NCBI GenBank assembly: GCA_050943055.1
Contig: JBMNOL010000003.1
Coordinates: 3,982-67,981, forward strand
Length of the DNA stretch: 64,000 nt
From: Patescibacteria group bacterium
Lineage (GTDB): Bacteria; Patescibacteriota; Patescibacteriia; Patescibacteriales; UBA12465
Direction: 5' to 3'
Under the pieces are notes generated by a model. The model saw only the letters and a list, made by a program, of their open reading frames with translations. It ran no database searches and was not told the origin of the DNA. Position 1 is the stretch's first letter, and each line of letters begins with the position of its first letter. Positions 14,449-61,229 of this stretch are shown here, piece by piece. The position numbers and the translations under genes were made by a program.

Positions 14449-15984
14449 ATGAATATCGAGCTTGATACCTCACGTTTAGATTATTTTTTTGCGGCCGATT
14501 TTGGTGAAATGATGTGGCTTTTTTTTGCCAACGTTGGTTGGATTGTTTTAGCAATCTTTTTTCTTTTCGGGGTTCGGGAAATTTATCTTTTTTACATTCA
14601 AACTAAATTTGCTAAAGGTTTGAAGTATGTCTTATTGGCTATTGATGTCCCTCGGGGTAATACCCAGTCGCCAAAGGCCGTGGAAAATCTTTTTACTTAT
14701 TTAGGTGGTGCTCATGGATCGGTAAGTTTTTACGAGAAATGGTTTGAGGGGCGCTTCCAACAAGCGTTTAGTTTTGAAATTGTCGGTATTGATGGCTACA
14801 CTCAATTTGTTATTCGCACTCCAGTCGAGCAACGTTTTCTTTTGGAATCGGCAATTTATTCACAATATCCCGATGCGGAAATAAGTGAGATTGATGATTA
14901 TACTTCAAATGTTCCCAATCGTTTTCCTGATGATGAGTGGGACCTTTGGGGTGGCGAATTTATTTTAAGTGCTCCTGACGCTTATCCGATTAAACTCTAC
15001 TCGGAGTTTGAGTCCATGCAAGGTGAGCCGGAAGAGCGGTTTAAAGATCCGATGGCCACCTTAATGGATTTAACTAGCTCCTTAAATAAGGGAGAGCAAC
15101 TGTGGTTACAATTTATTGTAATTCCTATGGATTTTGCTTGGGTAAAGCGTTCGGATGCGGAGGTTGATAAAATTTTAGGGAAGACACCAAAGACTAAACA
15201 AGGTCTATTTATTAGTTTTTTGGTTTGGCTAGGTGAGCTCAGTGAGCACGTTTTTGCTATTTGGAAGGATATCAAACCGAAAGAGGAAAAAAAGGCGCTT
15301 TCCATGATGGAATTAACGCCCAAGAAAATAAAACAAATTGAAGGTATTCAGAATAAAGCTTCAAAGCTCGGGTTTGGCTTTAAAATGCGGGCGATTTGTA
15401 TTGGCCGTAAAGGTGTTTTTAATAAGGGGAAAATGGTTTCCGGTCTAGTTGGCTGGGTGAAGCAATTTACCGCTTTGGATTTAAATGGTTTTAAACCGGA
15501 TATGAAAGTAACGGCGACTAAAACGGCTTATTTTAGAAAAGATGCGCGTCTGGTAACCAAGAAGAATATTATCATGCAAAATTATGTTAACCGTTCTTTA
15601 GCTGGTCGTCCACCGTCAATTTTAAATATTGAAGAGTTGGCGACACTTTGGCATTTTCCTTTAGACGCAGTGGTTAAGGCGCCGCTCATTCAAAAGGCTC
15701 CAGGGCGAAAATCCGATGCTCCGGCCGAACTGCCAATCGCTGATGATATCTCTAACACCCAAGCGCCGCCGCCCGATATTTTTAGTGGCTTAACCAGGAA
15801 GGAAGAGAAGCCGACTCCGAAAAAAACAGTTATTGAAGATAGTTCTCCGGTGGTTGAAGATGATCGTTTTTGGTTGGAACCTAGCGGTTCGGTGAAAAAT
15901 AATTTTTATCAGCCGGCTCCAAAAACAGCGGCTGGAAAATTGAGCGATACAGCTGAACCACCGGCCGATTTACCTTTTGTTTAA
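14449..15984 (+). CDS. Conserved-looking membrane protein of unknown function (TM + globular module ending in EELATLWHFP + Pro-rich tail)
   Basis: 511 aa. TM helix at about aa 21-48, then LLAIDVPRGNTQSPKAVENLF, SFEIVG..FVIRTP and YSQYPDAEI. No Walker A is seen. The C-terminal roughly 100 aa are Pro/Asp/Lys-rich. Confidence 0.6.
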   Translation: MNIELDTSRLDYFFAADFGEMMWLFFANVGWIVLAIFFLFGVREIYLFYIQTKFAKGLKYVLLAIDVPRGNTQSPKAVENLFTYLGGAHGSVSFYEKWFEGRFQQAFSFEIVGIDGYTQFVIRTPVEQRFLLESAIYSQYPDAEISEIDDYTSNVPNRFPDDEWDLWGGEFILSAPDAYPIKLYSEFESMQGEPEERFKDPMATLMDLTSSLNKGEQLWLQFIVIPMDFAWVKRSDAEVDKILGKTPKTKQGLFISFLVWLGELSEHVFAIWKDIKPKEEKKALSMMELTPKKIKQIEGIQNKASKLGFGFKMRAICIGRKGVFNKGKMVSGLVGWVKQFTALDLNGFKPDMKVTATKTAYFRKDARLVTKKNIIMQNYVNRSLAGRPPSILNIEELATLWHFPLDAVVKAPLIQKAPGRKSDAPAELPIADDISNTQAPPPDIFSGLTRKEEKPTPKKTVIEDSSPVVEDDRFWLEPSGSVKNNFYQPAPKTAAGKLSDTAEPPADLPFV

Positions 15985-15988
15985 AAGT

Positions 15989-17188
15989 ATGAAAAAAAAA
16001 CCTACTCTCCGGCGCATTATTGGTGTTGATGCTCGTTTTTATGGCCCCTTAGGAAAAGGGCTGGGGCGTTACACTCAAGAAGTGGTTGATAACGTTATTA
16101 GAATTAATCAAGATGAACCGCTAGATTTTGTAATTTTTTTATCGCCGGATAATTTTGATGAATTTGTTTGCCCCAATGAAAATGTGCGCAAGGAATTAAT
16201 TAAGGCGCGTTGGTATTCCTTGGCGGAACAATTTGAGGTGCCTTATAAGTGGTGGCGGGCGAAAATTGACTTGATGCATTTTCCGCATTTTAATGTTCCT
16301 TTAATTAAAAGGGGGGCCTTTGTCGTTACTATTCATGATCTTATTTTAACGAAGTTCCCAACGGTGCGAGCCACCACCAGAGCCCCTTTTATTTATTGGT
16401 TAAAAGATAAAGCTTATCGACTGGTGATCCGATTGGCGATTAAAAAAGCTAAACAGGTGATTACTGTTTCTGAATTTACGAAAAAAGATTTGATAACTCA
16501 ATTTAAAACTCCTCCAGACAAAATCGTTGTTACTTATGAAGGGGTGGCGAATTTAAGTAAGGGGGGGGACTCTCTTTTTGTGGCCAAGCTTGATCATCAG
16601 CGTACCTTGGAGCTTTATAATATTCGCAGTCCTTACTTGTTATATGTGGGCAATGCTTATCCGCATAAAAATTTAGAAGGTTTAATTAGAATTTTTGCTG
16701 AACTGCGAAAGGAGTATCCGGATTTACGTTTAGTATTAGTGGGGAAAGAAGATTTTTTCTATGAGCGGGTGCGTTTTTACGCCCAGCAATTAAATTTATG
16801 GCAAAAAGAAAATCATAATACCCCGGTCGTTTTTCCCGGCTATGTGCCGGATATTGATTTGGAGGCTTTATTCCAAGAAGCGGCTCTTTATGTTTTTCCT
16901 TCTCTCTATGAAGGTTTTGGCCTGCCGCCACTTGAAGCGATGGCTTACGGTTGTCCGGTGGCTAGCTCTAATTGTGCCAGTATGCCAGAAATATTGGGCA
17001 GCGCCGCCGTTTATTTTAATCCCGAAAATGAAGAGGAAATGCGAACGGTAATTAGTGATCTTCTAAAAAATAAAGATGCTCGGGAAGAATTAAAAGTTTT
17101 AGGAAAACAGCAAGTAAAAAAATATAATTGGTGGGAGTGCGCTCGCCTAACCTCCGAAATCTACAAACGTTTACTAATTAAAAGTTAA
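15989..17188 (+). CDS. Family 4 (GT-B) glycosyltransferase
   Basis: The ORF-track start at 15977 is TTG. ATG at 15989 (MKKKPTLRRIIGVDARF) is preferred. C-terminal EGFGLPPLEAMAYGCPV motif of GT4 enzymes. Confidence 0.8.
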   Translation: MKKKPTLRRIIGVDARFYGPLGKGLGRYTQEVVDNVIRINQDEPLDFVIFLSPDNFDEFVCPNENVRKELIKARWYSLAEQFEVPYKWWRAKIDLMHFPHFNVPLIKRGAFVVTIHDLILTKFPTVRATTRAPFIYWLKDKAYRLVIRLAIKKAKQVITVSEFTKKDLITQFKTPPDKIVVTYEGVANLSKGGDSLFVAKLDHQRTLELYNIRSPYLLYVGNAYPHKNLEGLIRIFAELRKEYPDLRLVLVGKEDFFYERVRFYAQQLNLWQKENHNTPVVFPGYVPDIDLEALFQEAALYVFPSLYEGFGLPPLEAMAYGCPVASSNCASMPEILGSAAVYFNPENEEEMRTVISDLLKNKDAREELKVLGKQQVKKYNWWECARLTSEIYKRLLIKS

Positions 17189-19627
17189 ATGTTTAAGAGC
17201 AGAAAAGCAAAAAAATCTTTATTGATGGGGGAGACCTCGACGGCCCCAGATTTTTTGCGCGGTCTTGATGGCGCGTTGCTTAAGGGCGCTAAAAAAAATA
17301 AAGAAAATCGTCAGCGACAGACGCGTCGACAATTAGAAAAACAAGCGCGGCGTGATTTAAAATTATTAACCAAAAATATAAAAACCGTTCAACGGGAGGT
17401 AGAAAAAATAGACCGCGAGCCGCTGCCTAAAAAATGGACTTTAAGTTATTTTGGTCGTCGCTTCCGCGAACGACAAACACAGCGTCGCTTGAGATTTTAT
17501 GAAAAAAAACTTGATGCTCAGCTTAGGATTGGTGAAAAAAAACTATCTTCCTGGCGTCGGAAGAATTTTAAAAAACCTTCAAACTCTCGCCGTCCTTGGT
17601 TTTTGCGCATTATTATTTTTGCCGGGGTTCTTTTTTTAATGATCATTCCTTTTCAAATTTTGGTGCAATTCAGCGACCGGGATAACTATTCTTTCAAAGA
17701 CTATTTTTTAAACGTCACCAAAAGTGCTTGGGCTAATTTAACCAGTGGCGGCGAAGCCCTGGCTAATCAAGATTGGAATCGGGCTGAAAAAAGTTTTAAT
17801 CAGGCTGGTGACCAATTTTATCAAGCGGCGGCCGGTTTAAAGATTATTAATGATCGACTCTTATCTTTAGCGGCTTACACTAGTAATCCAGAATTAAAAT
17901 TGGTGGCCGAGAGTAAGAAATTATTAAAGATTGGTTCTTTAGGTTCGGAGCTGGCCGCGGAAATCACTGCCACTCTTAACAGCTGGGAGCGTGCGGATGG
18001 TGATTGGTTGGTGCTACTAACTCAATTGGAAGCCCGGGCGACAACGGCTCAGTCTTTAGCCAACAATCTCGTTTCCGAATTAGAAACAGTGAGGGTGGAA
18101 AATTTGCCCGCCGCCTACCAAGCGGATTTTCAAGAAATAGTCGACCAGGCTGCCGCTCTGCCAACGGCTTTAAGTTTGATCGGTGACAATGCCGGTCGCT
18201 TTAAAAAATTATTAGGTAGCGGTCAGGACAAACGGTATTTGTTAGTTTTTCAGAATAATAATGAAATTAGAGGTTCGGGTGGCTTTTTAGGAAGTTATGC
18301 CTTAATTGATTTTCGTGACGGACAGATAACTAATTTAGAAGTTCCTGGTGGTGGTTCTTACGATACTGAGGCCGGACTTAATTTAAATATTATTGCGCCT
18401 GAGCCTTTGTGGTTGGTTAATCCGAAGTGGCATTTTTGGGACGCTAACTGGTGGCCAGATTGGCCGACAACGGCCCGCAACCTCGGGTGGTTTTTAGAAA
18501 AAAGTGCTGGTCCGACTGTCGATGGCGTGATTTCTTTTACCCCCAGCGTGATTGAAGAATTATTAAAAATTACCGGTCCGATTGATTTAAGTGCCGAGTA
18601 TGGTGTGGTGGTAACCGCTGAAAATTTTTGGCAGGAGGTGCAATTAACGGCTGAGCGATATAATTTGGTAGGCACCAATCCCGATTTGGTCGCGCACTTG
18701 CCGGCGGGGGAGGAGAATAAACCAAAAAAAATTATTGGCACTTTGGCGGAAGAAATTTTAGAGATTTTACCGGAAAAAATGAATCAAGATAATTTTCTTA
18801 AACTCGCTTCTTTAGTCGAAGAAAGCTTGGCCACGAAACAGGTGCTACTTTATTTTTCTGATCCCGATTTGCAGGCGATGGTTTCTCAGTGGGGCTGGAG
18901 CGGGGAAGTAGTTGCGGCGCCTTACGATTATTTAATGGTGGTTAATACTAATATTGCGGGCGCTAAAACTGACCGGATGATTAAAGAAACAATTAATCAG
19001 CAGGTGAATATTAAAGAGGATGGCCGGGTGGTTGTTGATTTAAAAATAAAACGTGAGCACACGGCGTCACCACATACCCCTTTGGTGGGAGTACGAAATG
19101 TTAATTGGCTTAGAGTTTATGTGCCTGAGGGTGCTAAACTCTTAAAAGCCGGAGGCTTTAAAGCTCCGGACGCCGAGTATTTTTCTTATCCAGAACCTGA
19201 TTGGCAAGAAAATGAACTTCTAGCAACTACCGAAGGGCAGGCTTTAGTTGAACCTGTTAGCGGTACCAAAGTTTATTCCGATTCCGGTAAGACGGTCTTT
19301 GCTAATTGGAGTATGATTGATCCGGGCGAGACAGCGGAGTTATGGTTTGAATACGAATTACCTCAACCGGTGCCCGAATTAAAAGTTGCCGATAATTTAT
19401 TTCAGCGCTTAAATAACTGGCTTAACCCGGAAAACATAAGTCGCTACAATTATTCTTTACTGGTTCAAAAGCAACCGGGAGTGATTAATGATAATTATCA
19501 GCTCCAGGTTAAGTGGCCAGATAATTATCATTTGAATTGGCAAGGTCCAGGTTTAATTGGTGGTCAAGCGCCACTCACGCCCTTAACTCGGGATCGCTTT
19601 TTTTCTTTAGCTTTTAGTAATTATTAA
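17189..19627 (+). CDS. DUF4012 domain membrane protein
   Basis: 812 aa. A roughly 130-aa Arg/Lys-rich N-tail, one TM (WFLRIIIFAGVLFLMIIPFQILV), and DKRYLLVFQNNNEIRGSGGFLGSYALIDF, which I recognise as the DUF4012 core. Confidence 0.75.
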   Translation: MFKSRKAKKSLLMGETSTAPDFLRGLDGALLKGAKKNKENRQRQTRRQLEKQARRDLKLLTKNIKTVQREVEKIDREPLPKKWTLSYFGRRFRERQTQRRLRFYEKKLDAQLRIGEKKLSSWRRKNFKKPSNSRRPWFLRIIIFAGVLFLMIIPFQILVQFSDRDNYSFKDYFLNVTKSAWANLTSGGEALANQDWNRAEKSFNQAGDQFYQAAAGLKIINDRLLSLAAYTSNPELKLVAESKKLLKIGSLGSELAAEITATLNSWERADGDWLVLLTQLEARATTAQSLANNLVSELETVRVENLPAAYQADFQEIVDQAAALPTALSLIGDNAGRFKKLLGSGQDKRYLLVFQNNNEIRGSGGFLGSYALIDFRDGQITNLEVPGGGSYDTEAGLNLNIIAPEPLWLVNPKWHFWDANWWPDWPTTARNLGWFLEKSAGPTVDGVISFTPSVIEELLKITGPIDLSAEYGVVVTAENFWQEVQLTAERYNLVGTNPDLVAHLPAGEENKPKKIIGTLAEEILEILPEKMNQDNFLKLASLVEESLATKQVLLYFSDPDLQAMVSQWGWSGEVVAAPYDYLMVVNTNIAGAKTDRMIKETINQQVNIKEDGRVVVDLKIKREHTASPHTPLVGVRNVNWLRVYVPEGAKLLKAGGFKAPDAEYFSYPEPDWQENELLATTEGQALVEPVSGTKVYSDSGKTVFANWSMIDPGETAELWFEYELPQPVPELKVADNLFQRLNNWLNPENISRYNYSLLVQKQPGVINDNYQLQVKWPDNYHLNWQGPGLIGGQAPLTPLTRDRFFSLAFSNY

Positions 19628-19630
19628 TAT

Positions 19631-21679
19631 ATGTCTATTAAAAAAAATATTCCGGTCACGGCCGGTCCAGCAAAAAATAAGCCCACACCTAAAGATTCTA
19701 ATCAGAGGGGGGCAGAAAATTCTGAGCTTAAGTCTGGAGCGATATCTGAACCGCAGCCAACGCGGCGGCCAGTTTTTAGCGCTCATCCAGTACCCACCAA
19801 AGAGCAGGTCAAAAAATTTGAACAGGCGGTTCGTCGGGAGGCTCGCGAAGAAGAAATTGAGGATAATCTCTCGGAAATTTATCGTGATAAAAAGGGTGAA
19901 TTAGTTAATGTTTCAGAATTTAAGGCGCGCAAAAAACCAGTTTTAGTTTTGTTTTTAAAGAATATTTTTGTCTTAGCGGTAATTGCTTCATTAGCTTATG
20001 CCGCCTTCACTTATTTTTTCAGCCCCAACGCTAACGAGGCTAGAGTTAATCTAGAAATCACCGCTCCTGATGAAGTTAAAGCCGGCGAACCTTTTAGTTA
20101 TTCGGTTGTTTACGAAAACCGGAGTGAGTTCGTTTTAAAAAATTTACGTCTTGAACTCAAATATCCAGAAAGATTCATTCGCGAGGAGGTGAGCGGAGAG
20201 CTAACACCGCTAGGCAGCGCCGGTAATTATTTTGAATTACCAGACTTGCCGATTGGTGGTCGGGCGGAAATAAAAATTTCCGGTCGATTAATTGGTAAAC
20301 AAGATTCTACGAATATTTTAACAGCCGGTTTAAGTTTCGCACCCCAAGATTTTTCTAGTCAATTTAAAGAAGAGGCCGTTTCGGCAATTACGATTAGTAG
20401 TCTCGGTTTTGATTTGGGTTTTGAATATAGTAATGCCGTCTTAGTTGGCCAGGAAAATGAAATAGAGCTTAACTTTGGTCGGCCCGATGGCACCTTCTTA
20501 GAAAATTTTGATTTGTCTTTTTCCTTTCCGGAAAATATTTCTTTGGTGAACGCCACTACTACCGCTACCAATACGGAGGTAACCGTTGATAAAAGTAATT
20601 TAGTTTGGCGAATAGAAAATTTTGCCTCTTCAACCGAGGATTATCGTTTGCCGGTTCGCTATAAAGTTAACCGCAAGGTTGCTGACAGTCAGGATTTAAT
20701 TATCCGCCTTAGCCAAAGAGATGATAAGGGGCAAGAATATGTCTTTTTAGAAAAAGTTATCAATCTCTCAATAATGACTAGTAATTTGAATTTAGTTTTA
20801 AGTGTTAATGGTAACAAAACTGAGGGGGCGGCTAGCTTCGGTGAGACGCTTAAATATTCTTTAAGTTATGTTAATAAAAGTGATAATGATTTACAGGATA
20901 TAGTTTTGATGGCCGTTTTAGATGGTGATTGGCTGGACTGGAAATCAATTAAGGAAACGGCTGGCGGAAAAATAAAAAACAATACGATTGTTTGGACTAA
21001 GGAGGAATTACCCGCTTTGGCGACTTTAGAGCCGGGTGCTAGTGGGGAACTAAACTTTGAGATTGCTATTCAAGATTATACCCCTGATAAGCTGGGTGAT
21101 AAGACAATCATTACCAGCTATGCTTACTTTACTTTAGGCAGTCAAAGCACCGGTCTTAATGATAGTAAGAGTAATACGGTGATAACTAAAATAAATAGCG
21201 ACTTCCAATTTACAGAGCAGGTCCTATATTTTGATGAAAACAATCTGCCTGTCGGTAGTGGCCCTTTACCGCCGGTAGTTGGTCAAGAAACTGGGGTGCG
21301 CGTTTATTGGCACTTGGAAAATAACCTCAATGAATTAAAAGGCGCTCGCGTGATGGCTGTTTTACCGGAGTATGTTAATTTTGCTGGTGCTCGTAATACT
21401 TCTTGGGGAAGCCTTAGCTTTGATCCGGGTACGAGATTTGTTACCTGGGAGCTCGGTGACTTGCCGCTTACAACTTATCAAGCGCAAGCTCAATTTGATT
21501 TAACATTGACGCCGACTGAAGATCAACGCAATACTTTATTGGTTCTTTTGCCGGGGAGCACCGCCCAAGCTTTAGACGCGGAAACGGGAATTATGCTGAC
21601 CGCTTCGGCTCAAGCAAAGACAACAAAACTAGAAGATGACAGTATTGCCGCTTTAAGTAATTCCGGCTTGGTTCAATAA
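19631..21679 (+). CDS. Single-pass membrane protein with repeated beta-sandwich (DUF11/CARDB-like) ectodomains
   Basis: 682 aa. Disordered N-tail and TM VLVLFLKNIFVLAVIASLAYAAFTYFF. Repeated pattern of the type VKAGEPFSYSVVYENRS..LKNLRL and SFGETLKYSLSYVNKSDNDLQDIVL. Confidence 0.6.
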   Translation: MSIKKNIPVTAGPAKNKPTPKDSNQRGAENSELKSGAISEPQPTRRPVFSAHPVPTKEQVKKFEQAVRREAREEEIEDNLSEIYRDKKGELVNVSEFKARKKPVLVLFLKNIFVLAVIASLAYAAFTYFFSPNANEARVNLEITAPDEVKAGEPFSYSVVYENRSEFVLKNLRLELKYPERFIREEVSGELTPLGSAGNYFELPDLPIGGRAEIKISGRLIGKQDSTNILTAGLSFAPQDFSSQFKEEAVSAITISSLGFDLGFEYSNAVLVGQENEIELNFGRPDGTFLENFDLSFSFPENISLVNATTTATNTEVTVDKSNLVWRIENFASSTEDYRLPVRYKVNRKVADSQDLIIRLSQRDDKGQEYVFLEKVINLSIMTSNLNLVLSVNGNKTEGAASFGETLKYSLSYVNKSDNDLQDIVLMAVLDGDWLDWKSIKETAGGKIKNNTIVWTKEELPALATLEPGASGELNFEIAIQDYTPDKLGDKTIITSYAYFTLGSQSTGLNDSKSNTVITKINSDFQFTEQVLYFDENNLPVGSGPLPPVVGQETGVRVYWHLENNLNELKGARVMAVLPEYVNFAGARNTSWGSLSFDPGTRFVTWELGDLPLTTYQAQAQFDLTLTPTEDQRNTLLVLLPGSTAQALDAETGIMLTASAQAKTTKLEDDSIAALSNSGLVQ

Positions 21680-30591: not shown

Positions 30592-31386
30592 ATGGAGAAT
30601 ATTAAAAAATTAAGAGAAATGACCGGCGCCGGAATGGTTGATTGCAAGAAGGCTTTGGATGAGGCCGGTGGCGATCTAGAAAAAGCGGTAGAAATTTTGC
30701 GCAAGAAAGGTATTGCCAAGGCCGCCAAGAGAACGGATCGTGAAGCTAATGAGGGGTTAGTAGCGGTAAGGGTAAATGCTGAGGCGACCGAGGGGTATAT
30801 GGTGGAAGTCAATTCCGAAACTGATTTTGTCGCTCGCAACAAGAAGTTCCAAGAATTTGCGGAGCAAGTTCTAAACTTGCTTGTTGATAAGCAACCGGAA
30901 AATCTCGAGGCTTTATTAGCTTTAGAATTAAATGGCAATAAGGTTCAAGAAGCTCTCGATCAGCTCTCAGGAGTGATCGGTGAAAAACTGGCAATTAACC
31001 GCTTTGCTGTTTTAAAAGGCGCTAGCGTGGCGGCGTATTCTCATTTAGGTGGCCGCATTGGTGTTTTAGTTGCCTTAGATAAGCCTGGAAAAAGCGACTT
31101 AGCCTTGGACATTGCCATGCAGGTGGCGGCGGCTAATCCGAAATATATTAGTTCAGATGAAGTTAGTGCCGAGGAATTAGCTAAGGAAAAAGAGATTGCT
31201 CGCGAAATTCTAATCAAAGAAGGAAAGCCGGAGGAAATGGTAGAAAAGATTTTAGCTGGAAAAATGAGCAAATATTACTCCGAGGTTTGTTTAATAGAAC
31301 AGGAGTACATCAAGGATGATAAGAAAAAAGTAAAAGATATTCTTGGTGATTCGGCGGTGCTCGGCTTCGCTCGTTTTAGTCTTTAA
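30592..31386 (+). CDS. tsf: Elongation factor Ts
   Basis: 264 aa. N-terminal UBA-like KKLREMTGAGMVDCKKALDEAGGDLEKAVEILRKKG. Confidence 0.9.
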   Translation: MENIKKLREMTGAGMVDCKKALDEAGGDLEKAVEILRKKGIAKAAKRTDREANEGLVAVRVNAEATEGYMVEVNSETDFVARNKKFQEFAEQVLNLLVDKQPENLEALLALELNGNKVQEALDQLSGVIGEKLAINRFAVLKGASVAAYSHLGGRIGVLVALDKPGKSDLALDIAMQVAAANPKYISSDEVSAEELAKEKEIAREILIKEGKPEEMVEKILAGKMSKYYSEVCLIEQEYIKDDKKKVKDILGDSAVLGFARFSL

Positions 31387-31394
31387 ATCTGACC

Positions 31395-31425
31395 AAGCCG
31401 CGCCCCGTAAAGGGCGCGGCTTTTG
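31395..31425 (+). terminator. Rho-independent terminator after tsf
   Basis: 9-bp GC-rich stem GCCGCGCCC/GGGCGCGGC with a 6-nt loop, followed by TTTT. Confidence 0.8.
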
Positions 31426-31432
31426 TCTCTAT

Positions 31433-32365
31433 ATGAACTTAGTGCAAATAAAATTTTCTCCTTGGGATAAGAGTTATACTTTTGAAACCAATGACCCTAC
31501 TTTAGCGGTTGGTGATTATGTGGTTTTAGAAACGGAAATTGGCGAGGATTTAGGTCGGGTTTTTAAGGTCTTAGAAGACACCACTTTAGATTCGGAGGCG
31601 CCGCCTTTAAAAATGGTTAAAAGGCGAGCCCAAAAAAATGATTTAAGTCGTTTACCTAGTCTTACCGAGAAAGAAGCGGCCTTAGAGATTTGCCAGGAGC
31701 GCGCCGATTTTTACCAGTTAGATTTAAAATTAGTTGATGTTAGTTTTTCTTTGAGTGGCAATCGTTTGAATTTTGCCTTTACGGCGGGCGGCCGAATTGA
31801 CTTTCGCGAACTGGTTAAAGATTTAACCGTTCGGTTCGGTAAAAGTATTCGTCTCACTCAGATTGGTGCTCGCGACGAAGCCCGGTTTTCCGGGGATTGC
31901 GGTGCTTGTGGTAAGCCCTTATGTTGTCGGACTTTTGTGAAAGATTTTTTTTCAGTGACCTCGGAGATGGCCGAGGTGCAGCAAGTTGTTCATCGCGGGA
32001 GCGAACGAATTTCCGGAATGTGTGGTCGTTTAATGTGTTGCCTGTCTTTTGAATATGAAGGTTATCAAGAGTTAAATGCTAAATTGCCGCCACTCGGAAC
32101 GCGGGTTAATGTTGATGGACAGCGCGGCGTTGTTATTGGTCATCACCCCTTAAAACAGGCCGTGGACGTGAAGTTTCCAGGGAATCGAGAAGGGGAGCGC
32201 GATTTAATTATCCAGGTCGACTTAAATCGCCACCAGAAAAAGGAAACGGCTAAGAAAAAAACGGCCCCCGAAAAAAAGGCGGTTCAAGAGAGAGTGGATA
32301 ATCATCAAAAAAATCCAACCCGTCAACGCTTGGCCCGAAGTTGGTCTCCCAAAAAGAAACATTAA
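31433..32365 (+). CDS. PSP1 domain protein (RicT/YaaT-like)
   Basis: The track ORF starts at TTG 31343, inside tsf and across its terminator. The in-frame ATG at 31433 (MNLVQIKFSPWDKSY) is preferred. Cys clusters CGACGKPLCC and CGRLMCC are typical of PSP1/RicT. Lys-rich tail. Confidence 0.8.
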   Translation: MNLVQIKFSPWDKSYTFETNDPTLAVGDYVVLETEIGEDLGRVFKVLEDTTLDSEAPPLKMVKRRAQKNDLSRLPSLTEKEAALEICQERADFYQLDLKLVDVSFSLSGNRLNFAFTAGGRIDFRELVKDLTVRFGKSIRLTQIGARDEARFSGDCGACGKPLCCRTFVKDFFSVTSEMAEVQQVVHRGSERISGMCGRLMCCLSFEYEGYQELNAKLPPLGTRVNVDGQRGVVIGHHPLKQAVDVKFPGNREGERDLIIQVDLNRHQKKETAKKKTAPEKKAVQERVDNHQKNPTRQRLARSWSPKKKH

Positions 32366-34220: not shown

Positions 34221-34979
34221 ATGAAAATCTTAAAAAAACTATTTGTTAAGAAAGAAAGCAAATTAGAGCCAGTGGGCTCCTTGCTAAAAAGTACTTGGTC
34301 TGATTATAAAAGACAAGCCTTTAAGTTTATCGAATTACTGGTTTACGCTTTAACTGGCTCCTTGCCTTTTTTGTTGCTGCTTTTCATTTTTATTAGAGTG
34401 CTGATGGTCGGTGGCGGGGCTTGGCCCGGTTTTGGCGTTTTAGGAATTTTTATTGTCCTTTTCTTAGGCTCTTTAGTTTTAATGATCGTTTGGAATTTAC
34501 GAGCACAAATAGGCGGTATTCTTCTTTTAAAAGAGAATTATCAGTTATCGCCGCGAGAAAGTTTTAAGAGAGCCGATAAGTATCTGGTTCCTTTTATTGG
34601 CGTCACCGCTTTGCTTTCGGTCTTAATCTTTGCTTGGGGCTTACTATTCTTATTGCCGGCTTTAATTTTTGGTATTTATTACGGCTTTTCTCAATATGTT
34701 CAGGTCGCCGAGGACGAACGCCCGTTTCGATCCGTTGAGCGCAGCTATGACTTAGTTAGAGGGTACTGGTGGCCGGTCTTTGGTCGCTTTCTTTTGTTAA
34801 TTTTAGTCGGTTTTCTTGTCTACGGTGTCCTCAGTATTCCTCTTTTCTGGATTAGCACCGGCAGCTGGTTCTTTGAGGCTTATAACCTCCTGATTAACTT
34901 AATTTGGATTTTGCTTTCTCCCTTTTTCACAATTTATCCTTATAAGGTTTATCGCAACCTAGTGATAATAAAAGGCTAA
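34221..34979 (+). CDS. Polytopic membrane protein of unknown function
   Basis: The track start at 34194 is TTG, overlapping the SDR gene. ATG at 34221 (MKILKKLF) is preferred. About 5-6 hydrophobic helices. Confidence 0.5.
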   Translation: MKILKKLFVKKESKLEPVGSLLKSTWSDYKRQAFKFIELLVYALTGSLPFLLLLFIFIRVLMVGGGAWPGFGVLGIFIVLFLGSLVLMIVWNLRAQIGGILLLKENYQLSPRESFKRADKYLVPFIGVTALLSVLIFAWGLLFLLPALIFGIYYGFSQYVQVAEDERPFRSVERSYDLVRGYWWPVFGRFLLLILVGFLVYGVLSIPLFWISTGSWFFEAYNLLINLIWILLSPFFTIYPYKVYRNLVIIKG

Positions 34980-35142: not shown

Positions 35143-36057
35143 ATGTCTAAGAAAAACTGGTTTCCGCTTACCCTCCGAATTAAAATTAGAAAATTTTGGC
35201 ACTCTTATCAGCGACCGCTACTTATTGGCGTGCCGCTGTTAATTTTATTTTTAGTGCTCTTACCGATTTTAAAGAAGAGTTGGTTGGATTATCCGGCTCC
35301 TCTGCGGGCCAAGATTGCACTTAATTATTTATTGGCGGATAAATCAACCGGTGTTGCTTGTCGGGAGACTTGCCAAAAACAACGTCAACAATATCTTAAT
35401 CTAATATTTAATGGTGGGCAGCAGGTGCGCTCGGAAACGGAAAAGGCCTTAGTTAGTTCTAGTACCAGCTCAGAAATTAGATCGTTATTGATTAGGGGGT
35501 GGCAGTCTGTTGGTTGGGTGGCTCCCGAACCAGATATTTTGACTAGCGCTCCTTCTTTGGCGGTGCAAACCTCCTTAATTGAGGCTTGGCCCGAACTCGC
35601 TCCCGCTAATTGGTGGGCAGAAATTAGTAATCGTTTTTATACTAGTCAAGAAGATGAGGAGCGGTTATTAATTTTAAAAAATTTATTAGGGCGCCAAGAT
35701 TCAGTAGCGGAGGAATTAGTGGTGACGGTTTTAAAAGATTCTAGCTATTCAGAATCGCTTCAAGGACAGGCTTATTTTTTGTGGGCAAACTTGCCTGATA
35801 GAGAGCGGGCTCAAGCCTTGATGCCGCTAACTGCTTGGCGTGAAATTTTGTTGCGTCCTGATTATTCGGAGACATTTAAAGAGATGATAATTTGGGGCTT
35901 AACGCCCGTTCCCGGGTTAATAAGTGATGGTGAAGAAATAAAAGAATTATTAAAAATAATCTTAACTAAGCCGGGAGAGGTTAATCTACATTTGCGGTTA
36001 GCGGCAGAGTCGGTTTTAGATGAATGGTTATTAATAATCCCCGATCCCACTTCTTAA
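35143..36057 (+). CDS. Single-pass membrane protein, helical-repeat ectodomain, unknown function
   Basis: 304 aa. TM PLLIGVPLLILFLVLLPIL. The rest is predicted helical by composition. No motif recognised. Confidence 0.45.
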   Translation: MSKKNWFPLTLRIKIRKFWHSYQRPLLIGVPLLILFLVLLPILKKSWLDYPAPLRAKIALNYLLADKSTGVACRETCQKQRQQYLNLIFNGGQQVRSETEKALVSSSTSSEIRSLLIRGWQSVGWVAPEPDILTSAPSLAVQTSLIEAWPELAPANWWAEISNRFYTSQEDEERLLILKNLLGRQDSVAEELVVTVLKDSSYSESLQGQAYFLWANLPDRERAQALMPLTAWREILLRPDYSETFKEMIIWGLTPVPGLISDGEEIKELLKIILTKPGEVNLHLRLAAESVLDEWLLIIPDPTS

Positions 36058-36078
36058 TTTAGCGGTCTTAAAAAATAT

Positions 36079-39000
36079 ATGAAAAATTTAAAAATTAAAA
36101 TTTTATTTTTTTCCCTCAGTCTGGTTTGGACTTTAAGCGCCGTCCCTGCCCACGCTCTACCAGTCGGAACTTTACTATTTAGAACTTCGGGTAGTGGCCT
36201 TTCTTATGGTTACAACACTAATATCTTAGTAATCATAGAGAATGGTTTTCCAAAAGATTTTTATTCCGGACATACCGGTATTTATGTTGGCCAGGAGGAC
36301 GGGGTTGACTATGTGGTGGAAATGCAACCGCAAGGAGCAATTAAAATACCTGCCAATCAGTTTGTAAATACCGCTTTAGGAGAGAAATTAATTAGTGCTA
36401 AAATTCCGAAAAACTCTACAGCGGCACAACGGGCGCGAGCGGCGGCTTTGGCCAAAAATTTAGCGCGGGCAGGGGTTGATTACGACTTTGATTTTAAATA
36501 TCAGAAGGGGCCAGGGTCAGCGGCATGGACTTGTGTTGGTTTGGCGGAAAAAGTTTATGAAAGTGCCAATACCAACAACCCTGCTGATTTAACTACGCTT
36601 GTTTATAACACCCAAGATTATGCGGTTGATATTACTCCCGACGGTTTTGATAATGTTAGCGTTTATAATCAAGACGGTGATTGTTTTTCCGAAACTAAAG
36701 AGTTTTCTAAAATTGCTCGTAAAACGGAACTCACCTTACCATTACCGGAAAAAATTGGTTATGATTTTGGCCTGGAAAATGGTGCCGATCGCTTTATTTT
36801 TTTTCCGCAAACTCAGGAAAAGCAAAACTCTTTAATATCGGTACCAGTTGATATTGATCTAGATTCCGAATTTAGAGCCGATCCGGTGCGCGGACGAATT
36901 CCCGTTATCAAGGTGGCTCTTAAATGGAGCTTGATTAATAATCCTGTTTCTACGGTTAAGCAGATTGGTTATCAGGCGGCTAGTATTGCTCAGAAGATAA
37001 AAGATTTTATTTCACCCACTGATGATAATTTAGTTTATCTTGAAGAAAAAGAGGTAGAGCCGCTTCCATCTAAAAAAGTTAGCAGCGGTAAAGAGACCAC
37101 CTCGCCAACGGTGGTTAAAACTGCCCCCAAAACCAGCACCCCGGCACCAACGCTAACTAAGGTTGTTCCGGCGTCAGTACCGACGGTAAACCCACCGGCA
37201 AAAACGACACCTAGCCAAACCTCAAAAACCGAGATAAAAACAGAACCAATTAAAGTTTTATCGCCGGCTCCTAAAAAAGAAACCCCACCGCCTAGCGCGG
37301 AAAGCTATCGTCCCGCAACAACAGTTTTGCCTAGTACCACCCCGGCGCAACCAAAAACTGATTATGTGCCGATTAAAGTCGCCACTCCCAAAGAATCAGT
37401 AACCAATCAATTAAAAAAGCTGGCTTCTGACGAGGCGGAAAATGAAAATAATAAAAATACCGTTCCTACTAATACCAATACGGAAGAAGAATTAGTCTCA
37501 GTGCCTCAGGCTTTAATCTCTAAAGTTTATAGTAATGGCACCGATGATTGGTTAGAGATTGTTAATGCTTCGGATCAGGATTTAGATTTAGTGGCGCACG
37601 ATTATCGTTTAGTTAAATTAAAAGGGGGAAGTCCGGTTTTGATTATGGATTTTGGCAACGAAAATCATGGCACCTATCCGGGCGGAACGGTCATTGCCCC
37701 GCACAGTAGTTATTTAGTGGTACGTTCTTCGGCGGCCGAGAATGTTAAGGCTTTAGCGGATGCAATTTCTACTCGTGATAATTTTTCTTGGACTGAAGAT
37801 GGTTACACCTTGTATCTAGGCACCGGCGCTATTTCCTCTGATGAGGATGTTGATATTGTTGATCGCCTGGGCTATGGCGAAGCCTTATATTATTCGGGCG
37901 CGCCCGCGCCCGCGCTTGTTCCTGGTTACGCGTTGGAGCGGAAGGCGAGCGCCAGTTCAACGATAGAATCCTTATCCTCCGGTGGTCTAGAGGAATTATG
38001 GGCGCGTTTATATGATAGTCGTGATAATAGTCGTGATTTTTTACTGATTCCTTATGATTATGAATTAATTAAAGCTAACGAAGAAAAGGATAATCCTCCC
38101 GCCGAAGAGGAAGTGGAAGAGGAGGAAACGGAGACGGAGGTTCTTCCTCCCGAATTAATTGATACCGCTGAAGGCCTGTTTGTTAATCCCGCCAGTCTAG
38201 AGTCGGAAGCCTTGACGCAGCTTTGGCATTTTGATGAGTGTTTTGGTGACGAGCATAGTAATGCTTTAGCGACGGTCAGTGACTATCCGCAGGAGTTAGT
38301 GGCGGCCGATTTGTGGGGAATTGGTAAGTGGGGCTGTGCTCTTAAATTAGATTTAGAAAATCGCGGCCTAAAAAGCGATTTGCCGCCAGATTTTGATAGC
38401 AATAATTTTACGATTGCTTTTTACTACCGCAAAGATATTCATGGAAACTTTTTTATTGATTGGCGTTTAAATAATCGCCAGCCGGAGACACAACAATTTT
38501 CTCTTAACTTGAATGAATATCGGAGCGAAATTCACGGTTTTCCCGGACCGAATGGTTATTTTTTTGATCTGGCCTGGCCGGCGGATGATAATTGGCATCA
38601 GGTAGCGCTAGTTGTTAATCAAGCAGCTGGATATTGGGGGCTTTATCTTGACGGTGAAGAGAAGTATCTTTACGAAAATAGTTGGATTATTCCGGAGTTT
38701 ACGGATTGGGAAATTGAATTAAGACCAAATACGCCGGCCGTTTTAATTGATGAGTTGAGCCTGTGGTTACGCCCTTTATCAGAAGCCGAATTAAAGGAGA
38801 TTTTTGATTATAATTTACCCTTTAACCCTTATACTTGGCCCGATCCGCAACGGGCGCCGGAGTTGGAGCATTATTGGCGCTTTGATGAAAATAACGAGGA
38901 AATTGCCAGAGATGAGATTGGCGGTGATGACCTAGCGGTTAAAGTGAGCGATTGGAATATGGAAGGCTTTATTGATAGCAGTTTAAAGGCGATCGGTGAT

Positions 39001-39465
39001 TTTTCCTGGGATCTTACGGAAATGCCCTTAAAGGATAGTTCTTTTGCTTTTTGGTGGCGAAACACTTCTCATCCTAATGAAGGCCGTTTCAATTTTAAAT
39101 TACGAGGCAACGATAAAGATATTTTTACTTTAATGCCGACAATCTATAATCCCAGTTTTTCTTTTAATGGGAGCGGCGGGTTTTTAGGGGAATACGGTAA
39201 AGATTATTTTCCGATGGATAAGGATTGGCACCATTTGGCGGTTACCTATGACTCCTATCGTTACCGTTGGCGTTTTTTCTTTGATGGTGAGCTATGGAAA
39301 GAGGTGCCGGCCATGAAATTGAAGCCCGGGACTGTTTTGGATCAGCTTGTTATTGATACCGAAAATTATCCTTCCGATATTGATGAGCTTAAAATTTGGA
39401 GTGGCGTCTTAAATAAAGAGGCAATCTTAGCGGAATATGAGAGTTATCAGGAGTATTTGCCTTAA
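36079..39465 (+). CDS. Large secreted multidomain protein: permuted papain-like (YiiX/C92-type) domain, Thr/Pro-rich linker, lamin-tail domain, two LamG-like domains
   Basis: 1128 aa. Signal peptide ending AHA. His-before-Cys pair (SGHTGIYVG at aa 65, AWTCVGLAEKVY at aa 152). TP-rich aa about 330-445. LTD-like ISKVYSNGTDDWLEIVNASDQDLDL. Two WHFDE/WRFDE...DELSLW/DELKIW concanavalin-like modules. Confidence 0.8.
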   Translation: MKNLKIKILFFSLSLVWTLSAVPAHALPVGTLLFRTSGSGLSYGYNTNILVIIENGFPKDFYSGHTGIYVGQEDGVDYVVEMQPQGAIKIPANQFVNTALGEKLISAKIPKNSTAAQRARAAALAKNLARAGVDYDFDFKYQKGPGSAAWTCVGLAEKVYESANTNNPADLTTLVYNTQDYAVDITPDGFDNVSVYNQDGDCFSETKEFSKIARKTELTLPLPEKIGYDFGLENGADRFIFFPQTQEKQNSLISVPVDIDLDSEFRADPVRGRIPVIKVALKWSLINNPVSTVKQIGYQAASIAQKIKDFISPTDDNLVYLEEKEVEPLPSKKVSSGKETTSPTVVKTAPKTSTPAPTLTKVVPASVPTVNPPAKTTPSQTSKTEIKTEPIKVLSPAPKKETPPPSAESYRPATTVLPSTTPAQPKTDYVPIKVATPKESVTNQLKKLASDEAENENNKNTVPTNTNTEEELVSVPQALISKVYSNGTDDWLEIVNASDQDLDLVAHDYRLVKLKGGSPVLIMDFGNENHGTYPGGTVIAPHSSYLVVRSSAAENVKALADAISTRDNFSWTEDGYTLYLGTGAISSDEDVDIVDRLGYGEALYYSGAPAPALVPGYALERKASASSTIESLSSGGLEELWARLYDSRDNSRDFLLIPYDYELIKANEEKDNPPAEEEVEEEETETEVLPPELIDTAEGLFVNPASLESEALTQLWHFDECFGDEHSNALATVSDYPQELVAADLWGIGKWGCALKLDLENRGLKSDLPPDFDSNNFTIAFYYRKDIHGNFFIDWRLNNRQPETQQFSLNLNEYRSEIHGFPGPNGYFFDLAWPADDNWHQVALVVNQAAGYWGLYLDGEEKYLYENSWIIPEFTDWEIELRPNTPAVLIDELSLWLRPLSEAELKEIFDYNLPFNPYTWPDPQRAPELEHYWRFDENNEEIARDEIGGDDLAVKVSDWNMEGFIDSSLKAIGDFSWDLTEMPLKDSSFAFWWRNTSHPNEGRFNFKLRGNDKDIFTLMPTIYNPSFSFNGSGGFLGEYGKDYFPMDKDWHHLAVTYDSYRYRWRFFFDGELWKEVPAMKLKPGTVLDQLVIDTENYPSDIDELKIWSGVLNKEAILAEYESYQEYLP

Positions 39466-39534
39466 AATATTTTTTGAGTAAGCGCTTATTTAAATAATGT
39501 TTGCCAACGCCAGATCGAGAGATGGTGGTGGCCA

Positions 39535-39574
39535 CCCCGACTATTTGTTAAAAATAGTCGGGGTTTGTCTTTTT
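39535..39574 (+). terminator. Rho-independent terminator after the 1128-aa gene
   Basis: 12-bp stem CCCCGACTATTT/AAATAGTCGGGG followed by TTTGTCTTTTT. Confidence 0.75.
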
Positions 39575-39619: not shown

Positions 39620-39972
39620 GGGGGTAAGCAGATGGTTGCTCGGTTCGCCGAGAGGAAAGTCCGGACTCCTTAAAAGGGCAGTGGATAACGTCCACCAGGG
39701 GTAACCCTAGGGAAAGTGCCACAGAGACAATACTAGTTCGCCAGTTGGTTCTACCAGCAGGCGGATGAAAGGTGAAAAGAAAAAGGGTGTCGCAAGGCTA
39801 CCTTTTTCGCTTAGCGGTGACGCTAAGATTGCGGTAAACCCTGCCTGGAGCAAGGACAAACTCTGTTGCTTTTTAAGTAACAGAAGAAAAGTGGTCCGCT
39901 TGATCGGTTTGGCAACAAATCGGCTTAGATAAATAATCATCCTAGACAGAATCCGGCTTATCGCTTACCCCC
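39620..39972 (+). ncRNA. rnpB: RNase P RNA, bacterial type A
   Basis: P1 pairing GGGGGTAAGC (39620-39629) with GCTTACCCCC (39963-39972). Conserved GAGGAAAGTCCGG (39652-39664), GCGGTAAACCC (39831-39841) and ACAGAATCCGGCTTA (39946-39960). Confidence 0.88.
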
Positions 39973-39996
39973 AAAATAACTTTTTTAAGACTTTTT

Positions 39997-59711: not shown

Positions 59712-59743
59712 ACAAAAAAAGTATTAAGCAATAAATAATTGCT

Positions 59744-59765
59744 GAAGTTATGCTATCATAACTTC
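59744..59765. repeat. Perfect 9-bp inverted repeat in the divergent rpmE/flippase promoter region
   Basis: GAAGTTATG-CTAT-CATAACTTC. Overlaps the proposed -35 of the flippase promoter. Confidence 0.6.
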
Positions 59766-59791
59766 AAAAAAGGCGCAAGAGTTGCTATAAT
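59763..59791 (+). promoter_or_regulatory. Candidate promoter producing a leaderless or near-leaderless flippase mRNA
   Basis: TTCAAA (59763-59768), 17-nt spacer, TATAAT (59786-59791). Only 7 nt separate the -10 from the ATG at 59799. Confidence 0.4.
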
Positions 59792-59798
59792 CTCTCTG

Positions 59799-61229
59799 AT
59801 GACTAAAATACCAAACATTGCCCGAAGCACCTCATATCTAACTTTAGCCTTGATTATCCAAAAGATAATCTCTTTTTCGTATTTTATTGTCTTAACGCGC
59901 GCCTTAGGTTTGGAAGCGATGGGCCAATACTACACGGCCATTTCCTTTACGACAATTTTTGGTATCTTTATTGATTTAGGCCTAGCTAACACTTTAACCA
60001 GAGAAGTAGCGAAAAAACCGGAGGAGGTGGGGAAGTGGTTGGGTAATGTAATTGGGATAAAAATTTTTTTGGCCGGGATTACTTTTATCGCCGCCCTTTT
60101 AACAGCTCAAGTTTTAGGATATGAATCTTTAGTTTTCCGTTTAATTTTAGTTTCATCTTTAAGTATGGTGCTTGATTCTTTTAGCACGACCTTTTTTGCC
60201 GTTTTGCGCGGCTTACATACTTTAAAATATGAAAGCTTAGCGTCAATTATTTTTCAAGCTTTAGTTTTTATTGCTGGCGGAATTTCCTTATCTTTTAATC
60301 AAGGCGTTTTAGTGGTGATGGCCGCTCTGGTTTTAGCCAGTAGCTTTAATTTCATTTTTAGTTTTCGCGCCATTAAACGAAAGATAAAAACTCCTTGGCG
60401 GCCTTTGTTTGATAAAGCGGCCTGGCGGGAAATTTGGCTTATTAGTTGGTCCTTCGGTCTTTTTGCGATCGCGCAAAGACTTTATCTTTATCTGGATTCC
60501 GTGCTTTTAAGCAACCTGGCGGATTTTCATCAGGTAGGCGTTTATCAGATTGCTTTTAAAATTATTAACGCTTTGCAATTTTTGCCGCTGGCTTTTGTCG
60601 CTTCACTTTATCCGGCGATGAGTACTTATTGGCTAAATAATCGCGAGCAACTAGCCATTTCTTTAGAGCGGGCTCTAAATTATTTAACCATAATTTCACT
60701 CCCCATTATGGCCGGAGTTTTAGCTCTTGATCAGACGATTCTCAATATTTTTAAGGCTGGTCCGGAAGCACTGTGGCCGCTACGAATTTCTATTCTGGCG
60801 CTTTTCTTTATTTTTGTGAATTACCCGATTGGATCATTACTTAATGCTTGCGATCGGCAAAAGAAAAACTTATTATTTATTTCCCTTGTCGCCGCGACCA
60901 GCGTATTACTTAATCTTTTCTTGATTCCGCGCGCCGGCGCTTTGGGTGCCAGCATTACTGTTTTAATAACCAACGCGCTGATGTTTATTTTAGGAGTTTT
61001 AGAAGTCAATAAAATTATTAAATATAGTTTTAAGAAAAATTTAATTATTTTAGGGAAGTCGCTTTTAGCCGCAGCGGTGATGGCCTTCATCGTTTATGGT
61101 GGTAAAGATTGGCTCTCTCTTCCGGGGGCGATTATTTTAGGGGCGGTAGTTTATTTTTTCGCTCTTTATCTGGTTGGTGGTTTCTCACGCGCCGATATTT
61201 TAAGTGTTAAACAATCTTTCAAGCACTAG
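59799..61229 (+). CDS. Polysaccharide flippase (Wzx/MOP superfamily)
   Basis: The track start at 59739 is TTG. ATG at 59799 (MTKIPNIARSTSYLTLALIIQKIISF) fits the family N-terminus. About 12-14 TM helices. Confidence 0.7.
   Translation: MTKIPNIARSTSYLTLALIIQKIISFSYFIVLTRALGLEAMGQYYTAISFTTIFGIFIDLGLANTLTREVAKKPEEVGKWLGNVIGIKIFLAGITFIAALLTAQVLGYESLVFRLILVSSLSMVLDSFSTTFFAVLRGLHTLKYESLASIIFQALVFIAGGISLSFNQGVLVVMAALVLASSFNFIFSFRAIKRKIKTPWRPLFDKAAWREIWLISWSFGLFAIAQRLYLYLDSVLLSNLADFHQVGVYQIAFKIINALQFLPLAFVASLYPAMSTYWLNNREQLAISLERALNYLTIISLPIMAGVLALDQTILNIFKAGPEALWPLRISILALFFIFVNYPIGSLLNACDRQKKNLLFISLVAATSVLLNLFLIPRAGALGASITVLITNALMFILGVLEVNKIIKYSFKKNLIILGKSLLAAAVMAFIVYGGKDWLSLPGAIILGAVVYFFALYLVGGFSRADILSVKQSFKH

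Follow-up and report, generated by a model that had tools for sequence, protein, structure and literature searches.

We have analysed a 64,000-nucleotide stretch (the window) of contig JBMNOL010000003.1 from a Patescibacteria group bacterium (assembly GCA_050943055.1), which carries at 36079–39465 on the plus strand a gene for a 1128-residue secreted multidomain protein. The gene is certainly real, since a 97% identical protein and about 120 full-length homologs are listed, and the position and length given in an earlier note, made from the sequence alone, proved exact. The ATG start is backed by the conserved N-termini of the homologs; no recognisable Shine-Dalgarno sequence precedes it at 36050–36079 (TTAAAAAATAT ATG). 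Immediately upstream lies the gene of a single-pass membrane protein, referred to below as the partner. The GC content of the large gene (0.42–0.43) equals that of the rest of the window, nearly all genes of which are on the plus strand, and nothing suggests a foreign insertion. The features of the two genes are listed below, with the evidence for each in brackets.

35143–36057, plus strand: partner gene, 304-residue single-pass membrane protein, ending 21 nucleotides (nt) before the large gene (hydropathy, adjacency)
36079–39465, plus strand: whole gene of the 1128-residue secreted multidomain protein (list of open reading frames (ORFs), Pfam, homologs)
36079–36156, plus strand: predicted Sec signal peptide, residues 1–26 (probable signal peptidase I cut after AHA)
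36157–36618, plus strand: predicted catalytic core of the head, residues 27–180, with His65, Glu81, Tyr135 and Cys152 (Pfam, hhalign, Foldseek)
36619–36963, plus strand: family-specific head extension, residues 181–295 (conservation, AlphaFold2)
36964–37509, plus strand: putative amphipathic helix (about residues 290–312) and Ser/Thr/Pro/Lys stalk up to residue 477 (composition, alignment)
37510–38091, plus strand: LTD-like (lamin-tail-domain-like) beta-sandwich, residues 478–671 (Pfam LTD match below the gathering score, AlphaFold2 model)
38092–38202, plus strand: linker, residues 672–708, including the acidic run EEEVEEEETETE (residues 676–687) (sequence, AlphaFold2)
38203–38811, plus strand: LamG/ConA-like jelly roll 1, residues 709–911 (Pfam, AlphaFold2, Foldseek)
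38860–39441, plus strand: LamG/ConA-like jelly roll 2, residues 928–1121 (Pfam Laminin_G_3 at residues 982–1116, AlphaFold2, Foldseek)
39534–39564, plus strand: intrinsic-terminator-like hairpin with a 13-bp stem and a T-rich tail (sequence)

The domains that the earlier note had called by eye (a permuted papain-like domain, an LTD-like domain and two LamG domains) were all recovered when hidden Markov model (HMM) searches and structure prediction were run. Their boundaries lie within a few residues of those proposed, the one exception being the LTD-like domain, whose model runs to residue 671 where the earlier note had stopped near residue 620. The low-complexity Ser/Thr/Pro/Lys stalk is likewise there; it is longer than the roughly 115 residues first given, since it is unconserved over about residues 296–477.

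The enzyme head and its invariant residues

Residues 28–180 of the head (residues 27–295) match Pfam Peptidase_C92 (PF05708) with 37.7 bits (E 2.9e-9), above the gathering score of 27, and the order of His65, Glu81 and then Cys152 is the permuted one, in which the catalytic His comes before the Cys. Core and extension were modelled together by AlphaFold2 (residues 1–320), with a predicted local distance difference test score (pLDDT) of 87.9 and a predicted template modelling (TM) score of 0.85. When this model was searched with Foldseek, the sole meaningful PDB match was Escherichia coli YiiX (2if6; probability 1.00, target-normalised TM score 0.60, E 1.9e-3), and the predicted papain-like alpha+beta fold can be superposed on that structure. 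The YiiX sequence, taken from the MG1655 record, was also aligned to the family profile by hhalign (83%, E 9e-6), which paired His65, Glu81, Tyr135 and Cys152 with His49, Glu64, Tyr115 and Cys128 of YiiX, the catalytic residues listed by Xu et al. (PMC3142127). On every sequence and fold test applied, including that of the modelled head against 2if6, the protein is thus assigned to the YaeF/YiiX (C92) family.

Residue conservation was counted in a MAFFT alignment of the query and 120 homologs (n = 121). Cys152 and Tyr135 are each found in all 121 sequences, Glu81 in 120, and His65 also in 120, the remaining one having a gap at this position. Equally fixed are Asp136, the Q142-K143-G144 triplet and the E157-K158-x-x-E161-S162 stretch, and the invariant motifs of the extension include DITPDGFDN and WSLINNP. 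The codons that the earlier note had assigned to the dyad, at nt 36271 for His65 and nt 36532 for Cys152, were checked and are CAT and TGT; the conservation of both residues argues against a pure adhesin, which that note had set as the outcome should the dyad vary among homologs.

The 115-residue extension (residues 181–295) has no Pfam or PDB counterpart and is absent from second-tier relatives. Median identities to the query, taken over about 116 homologs with an overall identity of ≤53%, are 0.55 for the head core (residues 27–180) and 0.56 for the extension, followed by 0.46 for the LTD-like domain (residues 478–671), 0.34 for each of the LamG modules and 0.12 for the stalk. Judged by this pattern, the head including its extension is the predicted functional centre of the protein.

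Distant relatives share the core only (about residues 27–215 of the query). In the five that were scanned, it is fused to multiple LTDs, to Ig-like, PKD or fn3 domains and to DUF2341 or ConA-like domains. A subgroup of the distant relatives (P0181, P0184–P0186, P0190–P0200 and P0205; up to about 2500 residues, with three of the five scanned proteins among them) carries Gly, Ala, Glu, Ser or Asn in place of the His, Ser, Pro or Gly in place of the Cys, and Phe in place of Tyr135 in the MAFFT alignment, with the QKGP and EKxYES motifs retained. These paralogs look like pseudoenzyme versions serving as binding modules. Since the fold tolerates loss of the dyad in them, yet the dyad is invariant in the present family, selection for catalysis is indicated here.

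Export signal, stalk and C-terminal modules

A Lys-rich n-region and a hydrophobic core (residues 4–22 in the window protein) open the sequence of every homolog. Position −1 is Ala in 115 of the 121 sequences, position −3 is Cys, Ala or Val, and the conserved domain starts right after the cleavage site with (M/L)PxGTL. By inspection this is a predicted type I signal peptide. A lipoprotein anchor was considered and rejected, since there is no lipobox and the Cys found at −3 in some homologs is off-motif. Beyond the signal peptide, the 1128-residue protein contains no transmembrane segment, and no C-terminal membrane segment or anchor was seen by inspection, the protein ending with LamG2.

The helix that follows the head (about residues 290–312) has a median hydrophobic moment of 0.47, versus 0.34 for shuffled sequence, and appears moderately amphipathic; the signal is modest and we do not rely on it. 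A Ser/Thr-rich stalk is found in all homologs, where it measures 119–286 residues with a mean Ser plus Thr content of 28%. It may be O-glycosylated, by analogy with systems whose components are encoded near it in related loci: PglL and WsfB, both O-oligosaccharyltransferases, have the Wzy_C plus TPR architecture, and the initiating enzymes WsaP/WsfP of S-layer glycosylation loci are WbaP-like (PMC2943079).

The Pfam LTD match covers residues 479–588 with 27.8 bits, under the gathering score of 34.3; an LTD is listed for most homologs, for some of them without a mark of weakness. An AlphaFold2 model of residues 470–1128, built with 72 sequences (pLDDT 91.7), predicts a beta-sandwich at residues 478–671 (pLDDT >90), a disordered segment at residues 679–697, overlapping the acidic run at its C-terminal end, and two jelly rolls at residues 709–911 and 928–1121 (pLDDT >90). 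The top 50 Foldseek matches of this model are all jelly rolls, with no LTD structure among them; they include the clostridial neurotoxin Hc-N domain, tandem galectin-8 and the lectin domain of a trans-sialidase (E ~1e-10). Pfam Laminin_G_3 matches two stretches with 52.9 bits, exceeding its gathering score of 27.6, and LamG1 and LamG2 find each other in BLASTP (E 6e-5). In sequence searches of the PDB, neither the single protein nor the family profile retrieved a YiiX or LTD chain or a close sequence relative; the matches were to LamG-like chains only, significantly for the C-terminal domain of a Geobacillus arabinanase (5hon, E 2.6e-5 with the family profile) and weakly for pentraxins. Cys721 and Cys753 of LamG1 are each kept in 120 of the 121 sequences, a pair that would fit an extracytoplasmic location. 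Neither an SLH nor any other S-layer match was found in the 1128-residue protein with Pfam.

Partner, gene order and distribution

The partner has one transmembrane segment (residues 25–43) and a predicted ectodomain of about 260 residues; from its Lys/Arg-rich N-terminus it is probably oriented N-in/C-out, and its Cys73/Cys77 pair is invariant. We assembled 88 loci, namely six contigs inspected by annotation, 80 GTDB loci analysed with iterated HMMs, a second contig carrying P0052 and the window. A partner homolog adjoins the large gene in all 88. It lies directly upstream in 73 of them by a strict non-overlap test (median gap 21 nt), and the other 15 probably reflect over-extended ORF starts. 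The median identity of the partner homologs to the window copy is 17%, and a word-index search retrieved only 7 relatives. Among 38 members, HEAT_2 matched five (best E 6.2e-6) and Arm three; the PDB matches were non-significant, with AP-1 beta and importin-alpha among unrelated proteins, and no CPBP match was found in the partner. Its extracytoplasmic part may therefore, from these sequence matches, be a HEAT/ARM-like alpha-solenoid. We treat the partner and the enzyme, possibly together with the gene upstream of them, as a tight unit. Two of the loci depart from the usual layout: L019 has an extra 562-residue ORF that matches the profile of the large protein and lies upstream of the partner, and in L024 the large gene is split into ORFs of 979 and 393 residues, perhaps through a frameshift or an assembly error.

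Two further features flank the pair:

34221–34979 (ORF also from 34194), plus strand: polytopic membrane protein of about 252 residues with about 5–6 transmembrane segments and a weak DUF7847/UPF0259 match (hydropathy)
39620–39976, plus strand: complete class A RNase P RNA gene, rnpB (RF00010, 218 bits, E 1.9e-69)

In the clade of the window (6 loci, the relatives being L002–L005 and L007), a polytopic protein of 242–278 residues precedes the partner. In 64 loci this place is taken by a Wzy_C plus TPR protein of 690–765 residues, of which tblastn found no Wzy_C homolog anywhere in the 64-kb window. The 34221–34979 protein thus occupies the Wzy_C/TPR slot, and its membership of the unit is uncertain. 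Hydropathy bore out the earlier note in taking both upstream ORFs for membrane proteins; the universal partner role of the 304-residue one had been missed.

Downstream, the 13-bp stem at 39534–39564 and the T-run behind it agree with the terminator noted before, and this hairpin probably ends the transcription unit. The 531-nt gap after the large gene, which looked empty and had been passed over, is filled by rnpB; a 77-residue minus-strand ORF at 39707–39940 falls within this gene and is spurious. Of the 71 loci with room for it, 63 have an rnpB-like sequence after the large gene. After rnpB come a WbaP-like polyprenyl-phosphate glycosyl-phosphotransferase (Bac_transf plus CoA_binding_3), present in 65 of the 71 loci, and two family 4 glycosyltransferases (GT4). 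The order across the lineage is therefore Wzy_C/TPR, partner, large gene, rnpB, WbaP-like transferase, GT4 and GT4; the neighbours also include GAPDH, SDR and mnmA (tRNA modification), parAB and dnaE, the last three being equally syntenic. A single operon joining the large gene to the WbaP-like, GT4 and GT4 genes was rejected, since the terminator and a complete rnpB lie between. For the same reason, and because housekeeping genes are syntenic too, we treat the glycan genes as a conserved neighbourhood and not as an operon. Pfam found no specialised secretion or polymorphic-toxin modules among the domains of the large protein or its neighbours in the window. Taken as a whole, the interpretation in the earlier note is partly supported: its domains and dyad stand, the surface effector that it expected to process a partner or host envelope is only one possible reading, and the partner and rnpB were overlooked.

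Other envelope genes of the window are a GT4 gene at 15977–17188, an 812-residue DUF4012 protein at 17189–19627 and a 682-residue DUF11-repeat protein at 19631–21679 (all plus strand), a Wzx-like Polysacc_synt flippase at 59739–61229 (plus strand) and a PBP2-type transpeptidase at 7075–9189. The PSP1-domain ORF at 31343–32365 (plus strand) is listed with a TTG start that overlaps the EF-Ts gene (30592–31386); its true start is probably about 30 codons downstream, and the 97%-identical contig calls a 310-residue product.

The family is narrow. When 1.84 billion cluster representatives were searched exhaustively with the head by HMMER, only 130 clusters came up at E ≤ 1e-3, about 60 of them with the full head in proteins of about 1070–1700 residues, and in a GTDB scan of one genome per species, 157 of 185,579 species had a relative. 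The named records are almost all Falkowbacteria, Parcubacteria or 'Patescibacteria group', Patescibacteria being the only lineage that is repeatedly named. Dozens of GTDB representative metagenome-assembled genomes from binchicken/SRP co-assemblies (L009, L011, L012, L014, L016 and others) are titled 'uncultured Gammaproteobacteria bacterium', and one 7.9-kb contig with a relative is filed under Planctomycetota. Since the former show the Patescibacteria-type gene order and 50–79% head identity, we take their titles to be probably wrong, and that of the Planctomycetota record as well.

Database names for the family are generic ('LamG-like jellyroll fold domain-containing protein', 'YiiX/YebB-like NlpC/P60 family cysteine hydrolase', 'lamin tail domain-containing protein'), and no NCBIfam family model matched the 1128-residue protein. 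Full-text literature searches found no paper on this family or its architecture in Patescibacteria within the library searched, and literature and database searches yielded no characterised homolog with this combination of domains, in line with the earlier note, which could name none. What is new is the architecture, in which a head with its own extension is joined to a stalk, an LTD-like domain and two LamG modules, together with the invariably present partner, the confinement to a single Patescibacteria lineage and the pseudoenzyme paralogs.

Proposed function and its alternatives

The gene, its domains, the invariant tetrad, the export signal, the constant presence of the partner and a synteny that spans the lineage are what the analysis shows; a lipid-acyl substrate, an interaction with the partner, glycosylation of the stalk and a target on self or host are inferred. 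The reading to which we give about an even chance is that of an extracellular enzyme that works through a Cys-thioester, as an acyl hydrolase or transferase, on a lipid-type substrate, docked or regulated by the partner and targeted by its lectin modules. A lipid-type acyl substrate is proposed because the characterised permuted NlpC/P60 enzymes all act on fatty-acyl linkages via a Cys-thioester. In the YiiX crystal a fatty acid occupies a narrow hydrophobic S1 tunnel, and the authors argue against a peptide substrate (PMC3142127); the LRAT and PLAAT proteins are phospholipase A/acyltransferases (summarised in PMC7387801); Staphylococcus aureus LnsA consumes the sn-1 acyl chain of phosphatidylglycerol (PMC13559823); and Tox-Act1, a type VI secretion system (T6SS) effector, is a phospholipase (PMC12994826). 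The literature on the permuted branch thus favours fatty-acyl over peptidoglycan substrates (PMC3142127, PMC12994826, PMC13559823).

An enzyme of about 120 kDa would be exported by Sec from a Patescibacterium of the Falkowbacteria/Parcubacteria type, and the signal peptide would be cut so that the mature N-terminus begins directly at the head of about 265 residues. Cys152 would form an acyl-thioester with a fatty-acyl group, by analogy with YiiX, LRAT/PLAAT, LnsA and Tox-Act1; at the cell surface, the thioester would then be hydrolysed, as in a phospholipase A or lipid amidase, or the acyl group transferred, as in an acyltransferase. The Ser/Thr-rich spacer, probably O-glycosylated, would separate the head from the C-terminal modules, of which the LTD-like domain and the two LamG modules would bind a glycan, be it on the producer's envelope or on a host cell; at the membrane, the single-pass partner would dock the enzyme or regulate it. 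A target in the envelope of the producing cell is as likely as one in that of a host.

Several points weigh against this proposal. No enzymology is on record for any close relative. The sequence similarity to YiiX is weak, with an E of only 1.9e-3 even in Foldseek, and the family profile finds no YiiX chain in the PDB by HMMER at E ≤ 1. The docking of enzyme and partner is pure inference, and the partner, at a median identity of 17%, evolves very fast next to a conserved head. The mature protein shows no evident membrane or wall anchor, and the glycan-gene neighbourhood may be plain synteny.

Among the closest known proteins are E. coli YiiX and Bacillus cereus BcPPNE (2if6, 3kw0), with which the head shares the His-before-Cys permutation and the same His/Glu/Tyr/Cys set, the predicted fold matching 2if6; YiiX likewise has an N-terminal signal-like sequence. 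YiiX, however, is a stand-alone protein of about 200 residues whose physiological substrate is not yet known, whereas here the core is joined to the 115-residue extension, the stalk, the LTD and two LamG modules.

The S. aureus LnsA–LnsB pair, a system for lipoprotein N-acylation, is a functional parallel. LnsA is a secreted permuted NlpC/P60 protein that loses its signal peptide and stays at the outer membrane face (PMC13559823), where it requires the dedicated membrane protein LnsB (PMC13559823) and uses a phospholipid acyl chain (PMC7387801, PMC13559823); in our case the enzyme function is predicted. No homology to LnsA or LnsB was seen, though none was tested for. LnsA has 189 residues and no lectin modules, and LnsB, a polytopic protein of the CPBP family, is encoded at a locus of its own, whereas the present partner is single-pass and encoded 21 nt upstream. 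A two-component acyltransferase of the LnsAB type was accordingly rejected as a class, the partner having one transmembrane segment and weak HEAT/ARM-like matches and not being CPBP.

Of the competing explanations, one would make the head a peptidoglycan or wall-peptide amidase or endopeptidase that remodels the cell's own wall, with the LTD and LamG modules holding it on a wall glycopolymer made by the neighbouring WbaP-like and GT4 enzymes. The canonical NlpC/P60 autolysins provide a superfamily precedent, the protein is extracellular by its predicted signal peptide, and envelope genes are present in the region, including the PBP gene at 7075–9189 and the glycan genes flanking the locus, of which the glycosyl-phosphotransferase, GT4 and GT4 genes are in conserved synteny. 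We nevertheless consider it unlikely, since the S1 site of the permuted YiiX/LRAT branch is hydrophobic and those members that were tested act on acyl-lipid bonds and not on peptidoglycan (PMC3142127; PMC12994826), and since rnpB and the terminator separate the gene from the glycan genes.

A contact-dependent lipase, acting as a toxin or harvester against the host membrane, with the upstream membrane protein as an immunity factor shielding the producer, appears slightly less likely still. Tox-Act1 offers the precedent, being encoded with a membrane-associated immunity protein (PMC12994826), and Tox-Act1/TseH effectors share with our protein a permuted Cys/His core and a membrane-associated protein encoded alongside, the phospholipase activity being that of Tox-Act1 (PMC12994826). 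The invariable adjacency of the partner, lectin-type domains that could bind host glycans, and an epibiotic lifestyle that depends on external lipid would all fit. Tox-Act1/TseH are, however, T6SS-delivered and polymorphic and sit in conflict-system neighbourhoods, whereas here export is by Sec, the specialised secretion and polymorphic-toxin modules are absent, and the gene belongs, in nearly every locus examined, to a housekeeping-syntenic block and not to variable islands. Nor does the head, the slowest-evolving part of the protein, look typical of an arms-race effector in such a block, and the weak HEAT/ARM-like matches of the partner point to a scaffold type that nothing else here ties to immunity. 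The Tox-Act1-like polymorphic-toxin class was rejected for its missing secretion-system and conflict neighbourhood and for the Sec signal.

Loci for S-layer O-glycosylation (Geobacillus WsaP/WsaB, Paenibacillus WsfP/WsfB) resemble those of most relatives in combining a Wzy_C(+TPR) protein, a WbaP-like transferase and glycosyltransferases with a large secreted protein with Ser/Thr-rich sequence nearby; they differ in that the present protein has no SLH or S-layer domains and contains an active-looking enzyme, in that rnpB interrupts the block and in that Wzy_C is missing beside the window copy. An S-layer glycoprotein with an slg-type locus was rejected, as there is no SLH domain and the Wzy_C plus TPR gene that is adjacent in 64 related loci is absent from the window. 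A mainly structural, O-glycosylated surface-layer or adhesin protein, in which the head is vestigial or serves only for covalent envelope attachment by transacylation, is the least likely of the three: it would account for the lack of another evident anchor, for the stalk of all homologs and for the Wzy_C plus TPR gene upstream and the WbaP/WsaP-like transferase downstream in most relatives, as in S-layer glycosylation loci, but the tetrad is invariant while paralogs lose it, conservation is highest in the head and not in the binding modules, Pfam found no SLH or S-layer motifs, and the window has no Wzy_C gene.

Patescibacteria lack membrane-lipid synthesis, and no mechanism for lipid uptake or breakdown has been identified in them according to a 2024 review (PMC11665869); CPR (candidate phyla radiation) cells have been reported to be enriched in lysolipids. 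Going beyond the acyl hydrolase or transferase proposed above, the protein might be the missing means by which a large Patescibacteria clade acquires lipids: the partner would hold the enzyme at the surface, the LamG and LTD modules would grip host glycans, and the head would strip or transfer acyl chains of host phospholipids. We regard this further step as doubtful; if true, it would be a source of the lysolipids enriched in CPR cells and would feed a bacterium that is unable to make lipids.

Were the substrate peptidoglycan, or the protein mainly structural, it would still serve as a lineage marker for cell envelopes of the Falkowbacteria type. The YiiX family, itself poorly understood, is extended here to a multidomain surface architecture, with pseudoenzyme paralogs as natural built-in controls. 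An exported, catalytically intact-looking enzyme of a class whose studied members act on fatty-acyl groups, together with its obligatory membrane partner, is a concrete, clonable candidate for lipid handling at the surface of ultra-small Patescibacteria, which are unable to make lipids.

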